Source: Escherichia coli
Lineage (GTDB): Bacteria > Pseudomonadota > Gammaproteobacteria > Enterobacterales > Enterobacteriaceae
Assembly: GCF_003334335.1 (NCBI RefSeq)
Contig: NZ_QOWQ01000011.1
Direction: 5' to 3' (one strand)
DNA: 64,000 nucleotides
Numbering within the stretch: position 1 is the first letter of the stretch; every line of letters begins with the position of its first letter. The notes under the pieces were generated by a model. It was given only the letters and a program-made list of their open reading frames with translations, had not been told where the DNA came from and ran no database searches. Position numbers and translations under genes: made by a program. This document shows, one piece after another, positions 13,363 through 22,670 of the stretch.

Positions 13363-14010
<648 letters not shown>

Positions 14011-15052: not shown

Positions 15053-15404
15053 CCTTTCTCCCACAAATATCTAGACTTAAGTAAAGCGTGGAGTGTACTG
15101 GATATACCCAATGCTGGTTGAGCATTTGTTGAAAAAATTTTCCCCCGTTTTGACTAAAATGCGCCAGGATTGATGGAATCATTAGTCTGGTGATTAGGAA
15201 TAATCTGGATGAATGACAGGGAAAACATGCGTAATACTTACGCAGTTCTCTGAAAAAGTGATTTAAATTTAGATGGATAGCGGTGTATGGAAACGTTCTG
15301 TTACATGAAATGGCCCGTTAGACATCACAAATCGCGAAGAGTTTCCCATTAATTTTTGATATATTTAAAACTTAGGACTTATTTGAATCACATTTGAGGT
15401 GGTT

Positions 15405-15970: not shown

Positions 15971-17552
15971 AAGGTTTCGGGTCGAAAATATCGGTTCCGA
16001 GATGGTTGTAATCCACCTTCTGTAACTGGAAGTTGGTGATGTATATCGGCCCGGCTTTCTTCTCAGATATAAACGGGTATTTGATGTTAATTTCCTTCGC
16101 TTTAATCCCCGTCCACTGGGAGAAAAAGCCTAAGAAGTCATTGGCTGAGCGGCGGGCTTTAATCACACGATGCGCTTTATCGTCGCTGGAAATGACCATA
16201 AAAGGCACCTGGAAATTTTGCTGATATTTATCATCATGGGCAAGGTATTGCACGTCTTTACCGCGCTCTTTAAAGGCCAGACCGTGGTCAGAAAAGTAAA
16301 CCAGCGAGAAGCTGCTGCCGCTGTTGCGTAACTGATCGTACAGCTTGCGCAGTAAATCGTCCGTTTGCGTCATGGTATAGAGATAGCACGACGTTTCTTT
16401 CGATTGCACAAAGGTTTCGTATTTTCCTTGTGTCCTGTCGCAGGCCTGCGGATGTGAGCCCATCAGATGTAGAACAATCAGCTGCGGTTGCGAGTGCTCT
16501 TGCGCCAGCACTTGAGCGGTCATATCCAGTAACGCTTCGTCTTTGGTGTTTTTATCTGCTTCAAAATTACCTTCTTTCAGGAAGTACACTTCATCTGCTC
16601 GTTTGGCGATGCTGGCGATAGCGGTATCGTATTCGCCGATTTGACCCTGGTTGGAAAACCACCAGGTCTGGAAGCCCGCGCGATTTGCCAGGGTGACAAA
16701 GTTATCCTGAAACTGTGGTTTGCCATCGACAACGCGATTGAGCGTTAAGCCAAGCGATTTCTGCGTGGAGCCACTGGCGGCAATGTAGTCAGCAAATATC
16801 AAACCGTTAACGCTGCTGGCAAACGGGGTATTGTCCCAGTGACCGCCAAAGGCACCGAGGGCATCGCGACGCGCGCTTTCACCGATCACCACCACATAGG
16901 TCTGATACTTCGGCTTAACGGCAGTGACCGTCCAGGTATCTTTCATTCCGGAAAGTTTTGCCATCCGTTCTTGCTCTTCAATCACCTCGTTATTATTGAC
17001 GATGACATCCTTAGCAAAACGAAATACCGGATAGCCAGTATCTTTCAGTTTAAATACGCCACCCCAGGCCAGGTTTTGCACGGGAGCAACAAAAAATGTC
17101 GCCACACTGAATACCAGACACAGGCTGTCGAAGGTATTCCAGCGCGCTTTTTCATTCTCTTTTTTTCGCCTGATTGCTATTACGCCGAGCGCAAAAATAA
17201 ATAAGCCGACCAGGTAGCTGTACCACGGAAAAATCGTCAGGATTTCGGTCGACTCTTCCATATTGGTGGAGTGCAATGCCAGCAATGTATTGAAATTAGG
17301 CGCGCCGTAGGCCTGAGCAAAAGGGAAATAACAAGCCGCCACCAGCGAACTGACACCGACCAGAACTTTTTGTACGCGAGGCAATGTTCGCCATAGCAAA
17401 AGCAAAATAGCCGTAAACGCAGCGGTGTAGAGCAAACTGAAGGGGTAACCTAAGCCGAGGTTAATTAATAGCGACTGTAAAAAGTAGAACGCAGTCCACG
17501 GGCTAAATACCCGGCTACGGGTAACAAGCGATTCTTTGAGGGTTAAATTCAT
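15969..17552 (-). CDS. opgE: Phosphoethanolamine transferase (OPG modification), sulfatase-like
   Basis: 527-aa ORF; N-terminal TM segments plus sulfatase-type domain; recognised OpgE/YbiP. Confidence 0.93.
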   Translation of the reverse strand: MNLTLKESLVTRSRVFSPWTAFYFLQSLLINLGLGYPFSLLYTAAFTAILLLLWRTLPRVQKVLVGVSSLVAACYFPFAQAYGAPNFNTLLALHSTNMEESTEILTIFPWYSYLVGLFIFALGVIAIRRKKENEKARWNTFDSLCLVFSVATFFVAPVQNLAWGGVFKLKDTGYPVFRFAKDVIVNNNEVIEEQERMAKLSGMKDTWTVTAVKPKYQTYVVVIGESARRDALGAFGGHWDNTPFASSVNGLIFADYIAASGSTQKSLGLTLNRVVDGKPQFQDNFVTLANRAGFQTWWFSNQGQIGEYDTAIASIAKRADEVYFLKEGNFEADKNTKDEALLDMTAQVLAQEHSQPQLIVLHLMGSHPQACDRTQGKYETFVQSKETSCYLYTMTQTDDLLRKLYDQLRNSGSSFSLVYFSDHGLAFKERGKDVQYLAHDDKYQQNFQVPFMVISSDDKAHRVIKARRSANDFLGFFSQWTGIKAKEINIKYPFISEKKAGPIYITNFQLQKVDYNHLGTDIFDPKP

Positions 17553-17823
17553 ATGCCACTATCGTAACAAACGCCATGTGCTTACCCTGGCGTCAAGGGT
17601 CAATACCTGCAAGAGTGCGTGAAGAGTGGAAAGGGGTCCGCATCCGCGAGCCGCAATATACGCAGGGCTGCAAGAAGATAGAGCGAGCCGCCGTTCAGGT
17701 CAACTACTGACGAACAAATCTTTTGCGAAGGGGATTGCAAATCCGACAAAAAGTGGGGTTTTTCAGACCAAAACGCGTTATGCCTGCATGAAAGCAGGAG
17801 TGAAGCGGCGTACCGCGACGCCG

Positions 17824-17952
17824 CTATTTATCGGAAGGTTTATCTTGCTGCGGTTTGTTGTTGACCATATCGCACAACATAGAGAGCAGCATTAACCGTA
17901 CTTTAAAGGGAGAATGACTAAACACGCGCATACACCTCTTGAACTCATTCAT
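17824..17952 (-). CDS. mntS: Small protein MntS (formerly sRNA rybA), 42 aa, manganese homeostasis
   Basis: Not in ORF track (<60 aa). Hand-translated - strand: MNEFKRCMRVFSHSPFKVRLMLLSMLCDMVNNKPQQDKPSDK then TAG; MntR-type palindromes lie 60-90 nt upstream. Confidence 0.85.
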   Translation of the reverse strand: MNEFKRCMRVFSHSPFKVRLMLLSMLCDMVNNKPQQDKPSDK

Positions 17953-18010
17953 AAGACCTCCTGACTTGCTAATCCCGTCGATCCTTGAGGGATGATTGCA
18001 TTACATACAG

Positions 18011-18044
18011 ATATAGCACAGGCTATATTATATAGCTATTGCTA
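18011..18044. promoter_or_regulatory. MntR operator(s) in the mntS promoter region
   Basis: atatagc-acag-gctatat palindrome followed by tatatagctattgc; resembles MntR site AAACATAGC-N4-GCTATGTTT. Confidence 0.6.
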
Positions 18045-18137
18045 AAACGTTAATTTTTTGTACCTTCGCAACTCTGGTTTACAATGTGCGCACGAAATGA
18101 GAACGCTATGTATGCGTCACCATAATGAGGAAGCACA

Positions 18138-18605
18138 ATGAGTCGTCGCGCAGGTACGCCAACAGCAAAAAAAGTGACGCAGTTAGTGAACGTGGAAGAG
18201 CACGTTGAAGGGTTCCGCCAGGTCAGAGAGGCGCATCGGCGCGAGCTTATTGATGATTACGTTGAGCTGATTTCTGACTTGATCAGGGAAGTGGGGGAAG
18301 CTCGTCAGGTGGACATGGCTGCTCGTCTGGGAGTTTCGCAACCGACGGTGGCTAAAATGCTTAAGCGGCTGGCAACCATGGGGCTGATTGAAATGATCCC
18401 CTGGCGTGGCGTGTTTTTAACGGCAGAAGGAGAGAAGCTGGCGCAGGAAAGCCGCGAGCGACATCAGATAGTCGAAAATTTCTTGTTGGTGTTGGGCGTC
18501 AGTCCGGAAATCGCCCGTCGCGACGCGGAAGGCATGGAGCACCATGTTAGTGAAGAGACGCTCGACGCTTTTCGTTTGTTTACCCAGAAACACGGTGCCA
18601 AATGA
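18138..18605 (+). CDS. mntR: Mn(II)-responsive transcriptional regulator, DtxR family
   Basis: 155 aa; HTH plus DtxR-type metal-binding domain; 4-nt ATGA overlap with ybiR. Confidence 0.95.
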
Positions 18606-22570: not shown

Positions 22571-22670
22571 GCCTGATGCGCTACGCTTATCAGGCCTACG
22601 CAGTACCTGCAATATATTGAATCTGCAGGACTTTGTAGGCCGGATAAGGCGTTAACGCCGCATCAGGCAT
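22571..22670. repeat. REP/BIME element
   Basis: gcctgatgcgctacgcttatcaggcctac ... tgtaggccggataaggcgttaacgccgcatcaggcat. Confidence 0.85.

Follow-up and report, generated by a model that had tools for sequence, protein, structure and literature searches.

Which gene, if any, occupies the intergenic region between opgE and mntR in Escherichia coli, and how is its expression controlled? A preliminary description of this locus had proposed that a 42-aa open reading frame (ORF) on the minus strand of the gap is the small-protein gene mntS, that palindromes of the MntR type lie upstream of it, and that ORF calling with a 60-aa cutoff would leave the gap empty. We followed up these proposals in a stretch of 64,000 nucleotides, hereafter the window, to which all coordinates refer unless K-12 numbering is indicated.

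A 42-codon gene between opgE and mntR

The gap spans positions 17553–18137 and thus measures the 585 bp that had been given for it. It is bordered on one side by opgE (minus strand, 527 aa, phosphoethanolamine-transferase family, taken from the ORF list), whose 5′ side ends at 17552. On the other side lies mntR (18138–18605, plus strand, 155 aa), which is divergent from mntS and encodes the Mn-sensing repressor that acts on the boxes described below. The assignment of mntR was based on RefSeq and on a match to the NCBIfam equivalog NF008273 with 269 bits at a cutoff of 153. The gene order in a matching E. coli record is ldtB, ybiR, mntR, mntS, opgE, ompX, yliM, rhtA and dps, and we therefore assigned the window to the ompX–mntR region of E. 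coli.

On the minus strand, positions 17952–17824 comprise 42 codons and a TAG stop codon, beginning with ATG. The translation, MNEFKRCMRVFSHSPFKVRLMLLSMLCDMVNNKPQQDKPSDK* (42 aa), is letter for letter the peptide reported previously. A Shine-Dalgarno sequence, AGGAGG, can be read 4 nt before the ATG (17957–17962, minus strand), and the start codons of mntS and mntR are 186 bp apart. When compared with the NCBIfam equivalog NF033226, which carries the model title ‘manganase accumulation protein MntS’, the peptide scored 96 bits at a cutoff of 36 (E = 6.3e-28), with the match covering residues 1–39 of 42. RefSeq calls mntS under the matching sequence in all 12 of 12 E. coli records that were sampled across the ranking, and the published mutagenesis primers for the gene match the mntS sequence of the window (PMC4361602). 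Of 5426 complete E. coli genomes, 5422 contain the 585-bp gap at an identity of at least 95%, and the gap is over its whole length 100% identical to a K-12-lineage chromosome that bears annotated mntS. Compared with MntS (RybA) of E. coli K-12 (b4705, NF033226/PF26599), the protein, the flanks (opgE and mntR-ybiR) and the 585-bp gap are all identical. It is the same gene, and the window holds a further copy without any difference from the K-12 reference locus.

A search of 5.8 billion proteins returned 136 MntS matches, of which the 120 listed measure 38–72 aa. The names among the matches listed are MntS or a synonym, such as ‘manganase accumulation protein MntS’ and ‘Mn(2)-response protein, MntR-repressed’, besides generic labels such as ‘hypothetical protein’. 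The family PF26599 is shown on every MntS homologue in a precomputed Pfam column. Our own Pfam-A scan of the mntS peptide gave no match even at E ≤ 10; since the library versions differ, this blank was not counted against membership.

To assess conservation, we assembled 80 mntR loci from different GTDB species, covering Escherichia, Citrobacter, Salmonella, Enterobacter, Klebsiella, Raoultella, Kluyvera, Kosakonia, Leclercia, Lelliottia, Franconibacter and other genera. An mntS ORF divergent from mntR, with its ATG at a near-constant distance of about 185 bp, was present in 77 of the 80 loci; the three exceptions are two contigs without upstream sequence and one insertion. Together with the window this yielded 78 mntS copies, all of which start with ATG and encode 41–44 aa. 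Over the first 33 codons, the pairwise differences are distributed as 30%, 14% and 56% among codon positions 1, 2 and 3. Relative to the window sequence, mean pS is 0.52 and mean pN 0.09, which corresponds to a pN/pS of about 0.18. Of the other reading frames, neither remaining sense frame stays open in more than 1 of 78 loci, and none of the three antisense frames in more than 14. In addition, each of the 12 commonest upstream variants among the orthologous loci has a motif of the GGAGG type in the Shine-Dalgarno position. These patterns indicate that the mntS ORF is under purifying selection and that its signature is protein-coding. They agree with an earlier and smaller analysis, for which the figures quoted by Martin et al. 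(PMC4361602) are just 2 non-silent among 15 mntS substitutions.

At the protein level, the family marks that we checked were a length of about 41–44 aa and an N-terminus of the form MNEF-RC...FSHSPF-VRL. Sixteen residues are invariant among 36 diverse orthologues (M1, N2, E3, R6, C7, V10, F11, H13, S14, P15, F16, V18, R19, L20, L22 and K33). The peptide of the window has all 16, including the ‘PF’ motif and Pro15.

As anticipated, the 42-codon mntS is missed by an ORF list with a 60-aa cutoff. The expectation of an empty gap did not hold, as the list places an 89-aa antisense ORF there (17626–17895, plus strand). Antisense ORFs of at least 60 aa occur at the mntS position in just 13 of 78 orthologous loci and vary widely in length. 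This ORF is not conserved and was rejected as a gene.

Taken together, we consider it almost certain that the locus is E. coli mntS, the transcript of which was historically named RybA, with its MntR operator. Nothing that we found contradicts the identification of mntS made in the preliminary description, which was also right to call the locus a known one: it is well studied and already known in detail. MntS is a textbook case both of transporter regulation by a small protein and of gene birth from a signal peptide. Reading the raw sequence recovered a functional 42-codon gene and its operator, both of which ORF calling with a length threshold misses, and the locus can serve as a clean positive control.

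The MntS protein and its origin

We calculated an AlphaFold2 model of MntS from our own alignment. The model (mean pLDDT 76.5) contains a helix at residues 2–13, a break at S14-P15 and a second helix at residues 16–31, followed by a polar C-terminal tail that is of low confidence or disordered. This matches the description of MntS by Wright et al. as two helices kinked at Pro15. A sequence search of the PDB found no MntS structure.

The function of the protein has been characterized experimentally. Overproduction of MntS leads to Mn hypersensitivity, the tagged protein is seen on Mn limitation, and frameshifts at F11 and F16 abolish the phenotype, for which hfq is not needed (PMC4361602). MntS causes Mn sensitivity only with MntP, which it binds and inhibits. 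It self-associates when Mn is present, and its proposed role is to block the residual exporter when Mn falls from high levels to low ones (bioRxiv 10.1101/2023.06.02.543501). The mntP gene lies outside the 64-kb window. In the mechanism that we propose, the strong Shine-Dalgarno sequence would drive translation of a 42-aa protein consisting of a helix, a Ser-Pro kink, a second helix and a polar tail. MntS would then bind the Mn exporter MntP and inhibit efflux, so that the cell retains Mn, while at high Mn its self-association is proposed to free MntP.

Several stress-induced proteins of less than 50 aa are known to bind and tune larger membrane transporters, among them AcrZ with AcrB, KdpF with KdpABC and MgtS with MgtA. 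On general knowledge, MntS resembles AcrZ, KdpF and MgtS in its length of less than 50 aa, in its induction by a specific stress and in tuning a membrane transporter. It differs from them in that it inhibits an exporter, whereas the others stabilise or activate an importer or pump. It is also predicted to be less hydrophobic than these proteins and is described as having become soluble.

With respect to its origin, MntS derives from the signal peptide of MntR-linked SitA, the periplasmic Mn-binding subunit of SitABCD (Wright et al. 2023/2024). The signal peptides of MntR-associated SitA proteins share with MntS the motif FSHSPF(K/R)(V/L)RLML and a length of about 40–45 residues. Loss of the AXA cleavage motif and of the secreted domain, together with a lower hydrophobicity, sets MntS apart from the SitA group (Wright et al.). 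We searched 1.84 billion representative proteins in one pass with a profile from our own alignment and obtained 35 proteins, all of at most 147 aa; a full-length SitA was not among these 35. Among them was P0151 (147 aa; E = 8e-4 in the library search), in which FSHSPFRLRLMLVGMM...NAQA occupies residues 16–44. In a direct comparison by hhalign, its residues ~16–44 matched the MntS profile with a probability of 97.4% and E = 1.1e-11. For the remainder of P0151, the matches are Mn/metal ABC substrate-binding proteins of the MntC, SloC and ZnuA families. In this SitA-type protein the MntS-like segment is followed by AQA and then by a mature binding domain, whereas in MntS it is followed by the polar tail and a stop codon. 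P0151, for which no contig placement was found, is a single fragmentary protein; by its sequence, it independently supports the signal-peptide origin of MntS.

The MntR boxes and the RybA transcript

The palindromes upstream of mntS had been described as ATAGC-N4-GCTAT repeats. One of them is exact: box 2, proximal to mntS, reads ATAGC-CTGT-GCTAT at 18013–18026. The other, the distal box 1 (TTAGC-AATA-GCTAT, 18032–18045), has one mismatch to this pattern and ends at 18045, 1 nt further than the end at 18044 that had been given. Both boxes are conserved and carry no strand assignment. The exact motif was observed twice in the 64-kb window, compared with 0.07 expected occurrences, and none of 100 shuffles reached two. 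Its second occurrence is in the dps promoter (13916–13929, CACATAGCCGGTGCTATAC), where it overlaps a -10-like TATACT.

Of the 78 loci, 76 possess the two TAGC-N4-GCTA cores, always at a spacing of 19 bp. Among these 76, 65 share an identical 18-mer (ATATAGCCTGTGCTATAT) made up of box 2 and its flanks. The composite operator pattern of 31 bp was found in 66 of 84 fetched loci, and where loci were anchored on mntR its distance upstream of the mntR start is about 95–125 bp. When the 190 bp preceding the mntS ATG were aligned, a nearly invariant block of about 65 bp (18061–17998) stood out from flanks that vary. A reading of the conserved TGTAATGCAATCATC block as a Fur box, made by eye without a convincing gapless alignment to the Fur consensus, was dropped.

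The regulation suggested by these repeats is well documented. According to Waters 2011, as cited in PMC4361602, mntS is repressed by MntR:Mn. RegulonDB holds the curated entry ‘MntR / mntS / repressor / manganese treatment’, and dps is likewise curated as MntR-repressed (PMC4207228). A PmntS-egfp reporter falls with Mn in the wild type, is unresponsive in an mntR mutant and responds again once mntR is restored (PMC9806134). The Mn-dependent repression by MntR proposed in the preliminary description is thus borne out by published experiments, alongside near-invariant MntR-type repeats in a fixed 19-bp register. The E. coli MntR operators at mntH and dps share the ATAGC-N4-GCTAT core palindrome with mntS. 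The mntS operator differs from the dps site in the window, which is a single box, in having two boxes in a fixed 19-bp register and in its possible sharing with the divergent regulator gene; the mntH site lies outside the window. When cytoplasmic Mn is high, Mn-loaded MntR dimers would occupy the two inverted repeats 19 bp apart and block transcription of mntS; when Mn is scarce, this repression would be lifted. The block would probably act by promoter occlusion.

On published Northern blots, RybA appears as seven species with a common 5′ end, from 205 to about 400 nt long (PMC4361602). At its 3′ side, RNA folding and conservation point to a GC-rich hairpin at 17804–17825 (minus strand; stem GCGGCGT/ACGCCGC, loop CGCGGT) as the mntS/RybA terminator or 3′ stabiliser. 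The hairpin begins at the G of the mntS stop codon and is 90–100% conserved, above the level of the adjacent C-terminal codons. The stem core GCGGCG/CGCCGC is present in about 74 of 78 loci, and two loci show a compensatory swap from T-A to A-T. The tail behind the hairpin is TTCACTCC in Escherichia, whereas most other genera have TTCATTTTT, a canonical intrinsic terminator. A terminator scan of the region found none, because the U-tract is degenerate in E. coli. A weaker second hairpin, CCTGC/GCAGG (17798–17783), lies further downstream and, with an RNA 3′ end at 17771, would account for a longer form of RybA (17771–17798, minus strand; RNA fold and Term-seq). Beyond Escherichia, conservation in the region of this second hairpin is poor.

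Published Term-seq 3′ ends at K-12 positions 852845, 852816 and 852973 correspond to window positions 17800, 17771 and 17928; the offset (K-12 = window + 835045) was verified on four quoted 61-mers. The end at 17800 is 4 nt beyond the first hairpin. The mntS mRNA would thus reach at least the 3′ ends at 17800 and 17771, and the decayed U-tract of Escherichia fits the reported ladder of read-through RNAs from 205 to about 400 nt. RybA has also been reported as a target of ProQ and RhsFI (PMC7618764), and the hairpin would be a natural candidate for ProQ binding. The fold of the whole RybA transcript is not unusual (z = -1.15). In the gap, Rfam 15 has no family at gathering thresholds, and permissive thresholds gave only a chance snoRNA match with E = 0.87.

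Could the ORF and the palindromes have arisen by chance in AT-rich intergenic DNA? Short reading frames abound, with 79 of 20 aa or more listed in a 5-kb span, and if one mismatch is allowed, the motif is expected 1.7 times per window. The exact motif, however, is expected only 0.07 times, the two boxes stay in register in 76 of 78 loci, the equivalog match is far over its cutoff and the ORF shows purifying selection. Motif rarity, NF033226, selection and box conservation together rule this explanation out, and we give it practically no weight. RybA was first found as an sRNA candidate. It might act primarily as a regulatory sRNA in which the 42-codon ORF is secondary or incidental, or, in a weaker version, as a dual-function RNA, for example as a riboregulator of aromatic amino acid genes under peroxide stress. 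Its listing as a ProQ and RhsFI target (PMC7618764) and a 3′ hairpin more conserved than the adjacent C-terminal codons would suit such a role, and Martin 2015 (PMC4361602) explicitly leaves room for an sRNA function in other contexts. This is opposed by the strong coding signature (pN/pS 0.18, third-position bias, conserved ATG and GGAGG) and by the frameshift alleles, which lose the Mn phenotype; the effect is independent of Hfq (PMC4361602), and INTERFACE saw no Hfq dependence either. The unremarkable transcript fold and the lack of an Rfam 15 family argue in the same direction. We regard a primarily regulatory or dual-function RNA as very improbable, and a function of RybA as RNA only is ruled out by the coding signature together with the frameshift data. 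The preferred reading remains a protein-coding mntS under MntR control.

Candidate divergent promoters and prophage attachment at the operator

Next, we aimed to place the promoter of mntS relative to the boxes. By hand assignment and conservation, a candidate promoter was located at 18025–18061 (minus strand). It consists of an A-tract (18061–18054), a -35 element TTAACG (18053–18048), a 17-bp spacer that contains box 1 and a -10 element TAATAT (18030–18025), with a predicted start near 18018–18019, within box 2, which also covers the edge of the -10 element. TTAACG is kept in 67 of 76 loci and the A-tract ACAAAAAA in 64 of 76, while the -10 element is variable at its first base only (nAATAT). 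A promoter scan reported no minus-strand promoter upstream of mntS, as the candidate falls under the scan thresholds.

A second conserved element is the hexamer at 18000–18005, which reads TGTAAT on the minus strand and ATTACA on the plus strand. It lies in a block (18012–17999) that is about 100% conserved. The invariant ATCTGTATGTAATG on the mntS side contains it as TGTAAT in 67 of 76 loci, and the consensus TATAAT is found in 7 of 76. On the plus strand, the promoter scan reported the site ATTACA-18-TATATT at 18000–18029, of which TATATT (18024–18029, between the boxes) is conserved in 64 of 76 loci. The hexamer could serve mntS as an alternative -10 element on the minus strand or, on the plus strand, form the -35 element of a promoter for the divergent mntR, with TATATT as the -10. 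We infer the exact -35/-10 assignment of mntS from sequence, with two candidates for the -10 element, at 18030–18025 and at 18005–18000. Whichever candidate promoter is taken, the boxes lie across or right beside core promoter elements, the classical arrangement for occlusion. A search of supplementary data for the 5′ end of RybA found none given. Presumably EcoCyc places the rybA 5′ end at K-12 853,064, that is, window position 18019, which would favour the TTAACG/TAATAT promoter. In either case, a sigma-70 promoter in the mntS–mntR intergenic region would give rise to a short mRNA.

The conserved plus-strand site raises the possibility that the palindromes are a shared bidirectional operator, which controls the divergent mntR(-ybiR) promoter, and thereby MntR autoregulation, as much as it controls mntS. 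The ATTACA-18-TATATT site overlaps with box 2, and transcription from it would begin within box 1; ATTACA and TATATT are kept in 67 and 64 of 76 loci, and the conserved block reaches symmetrically past both boxes. Wright et al., moreover, infer that the association of MntS with MntR was inherited from an ancestral MntR-linked sitA operon. On the other hand, our literature search gave no statement from experiments about autoregulation of mntR in E. coli, and TGTAAT is equally readable as a minus-strand -10 element, with the shift to the consensus TATAAT in 7 loci weakening the case for a plus-strand -35. We therefore treat a shared operator as a realistic prospect, though one that we stop a little short of favouring. 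If it is correct, the term ‘operator of mntS’ tells half the story.

The centre of the operator is also the place where prophages have integrated in other strains. E. coli AHB29 has a complete P2/186-like prophage, about 32 kb long, inserted between mntR and mntS. The junction on the mntR side is identical to the window down to 18022, and the junction on the mntS side is identical from about 18036. A core, GCT(A/T)TATAATATAGC, is duplicated at both prophage junctions. From the extent of the identities it follows that the duplicated core is the 15-bp operator centre GCTATATAATATAGC (18022–18036, no strand), which comprises the inner half-sites of both boxes and the linker; in the window this site is unoccupied. 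Prophage integration in the operator centre is thus an observed event, and a junction between an integrase gene and mntS was detected in 27 of 5426 complete E. coli genomes (about 0.5%). Strain 1919D3 is a further lysogen. The reconstructed attP and the integrase had no close match among deposited phage genomes, and a literature search returned no paper tying prophage integration to mntS or mntR. The site differs from that of PhiECO1/PhiECO3 described by Nilsson et al.; the CFT073 prophage sits between rcdA and ybjL.

In the lysogens, and with the unrelated element found at the same base in a Citrobacter, the operator is split. The mntR gene is left with box 1 alone, and mntS is left with box 2 and a degenerate half-site supplied by the phage, while the -35 element and the A-tract are lost. 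Because of this split, lysogeny would be expected to rewire manganese homeostasis. The full reading, in which the 31-bp dual operator is a bidirectional element for overlapping divergent promoters, its centre is the core of a P2/186-like att site and lysogeny rewires Mn homeostasis, is possible but, in our estimate, rather unlikely to hold in all its parts. The use of the operator centre for prophage attachment could be relevant to how strains differ in Mn handling.

For a locus as well described as this one, what may be new would lie in the shared-operator and prophage-attachment readings. Beyond these, the comparison adds a picture of the control region in which the dual operator is fixed, a divergent promoter is probably shared and the Escherichia terminator has a decayed U-tract. 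As a minor observation, Citrobacter sp. R56, whose insert carries cargo ORFs with no PADLOC or NCBIfam match, diverges from the window at the same base, 18022, with unrelated arm sequence.

Prophage integration at the MntR dual operator

In E. coli AHB29 (NZ_OZ547246.1; loci L082 and L083), a P2/186-like prophage uses as its attachment core the 15 bp at the middle of the MntR dual operator, GCTATATAATATAGC (window 18022-18036). This prophage of about 32 kb sits between mntR and mntS, and its insertion splits the dual operator. Among 5426 complete E. coli genomes, 27 carry this junction. The mntS-mntR gap region is entirely absent from four of the 5426 genomes, and two matches to the gap fall in plasmid records. 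An unrelated insert in Citrobacter sp. R56 (locus L012) breaks the operator at the same base as the E. coli prophage. No match to the prophage was found among deposited phages, and a literature search found no paper on prophage integration at mntS or mntR.

In the Citrobacter insert, a cargo ORF of 265 aa (L012 1308-2105, minus strand) adjoins the attachment site. With its CxxC and HH motifs it resembles an HNH protein by eye; neither PADLOC nor NCBIfam gave a match.

RNA 3′ ends of mntS and the opgE upstream region

Comparison with orthologous loci revealed that the U-tract 3′ of the mntS terminator hairpin (window 17800-17804) is degenerate in Escherichia, TTCACTCC, and intact in most other genera, TTCATTTTT. 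This degeneracy is probably the reason why several read-through RNA species of mntS/RybA have been reported in E. coli. The longer of these species, extending to about 400 nt, would enter the region of the promoter-like site and leader of opgE on the same strand. Published Term-seq data place two RNA 3′ ends within coding sequence: one at window 17928 (minus strand), 24 nt into the mntS ORF, and one at 18149 (plus strand), 12 nt into mntR. These ends may reflect processing, pausing or attenuation.

Upstream of opgE, we observed a predicted promoter-like site, TTGACC-17-TATCTT (window 17675-17703, minus strand), both hexamers of which are essentially invariant over the 78 mntS-mntR loci compared. 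The long 5′ leader of opgE also contains a conserved hairpin, ACGCCA-N11-TGGCGT, at window ~17572-17594.

An MntR-type palindrome upstream of dps

The only other exact copy of ATAGC-N4-GCTAT within the window lies 5′ of dps at 13916-13929. This copy, with the context CACATAGCCGGTGCTATACTTA, sits 50-63 bp ahead of dps (ATG at 13866, minus strand) and shares bases with a -10-like TATACT. The palindrome fits the repression of dps by MntR, as described by Yamamoto (2011), cited in PMC5553809 and PMC4207228.

Small ORFs and other RNA families

Besides mntS, a second gene of the window falls under the 60-aa ORF cutoff, namely yliM, a 66-bp CDS annotated by RefSeq between ompX and rhtA (~15287-15352, plus strand). 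Of the ORFs that reach 60 aa, just one lies mainly within the opgE-mntR gap, a mechanically called ORF of 89 aa (17626-17895, plus strand) antisense to the 3′ end of mntS. It was rejected as unconserved, since antisense ORFs reach 60 aa in just 13 of the 78 loci.

Outside the mntS locus, an Rfam scan of the window at the gathering threshold matched RybB (52930-53008, 105 bits), naRNA4/CssrE (2543-2613, 78 bits) and ES036/CssrF (22592-22634, 42 bits), all on the minus strand. These are known families unrelated to the mntS finding.
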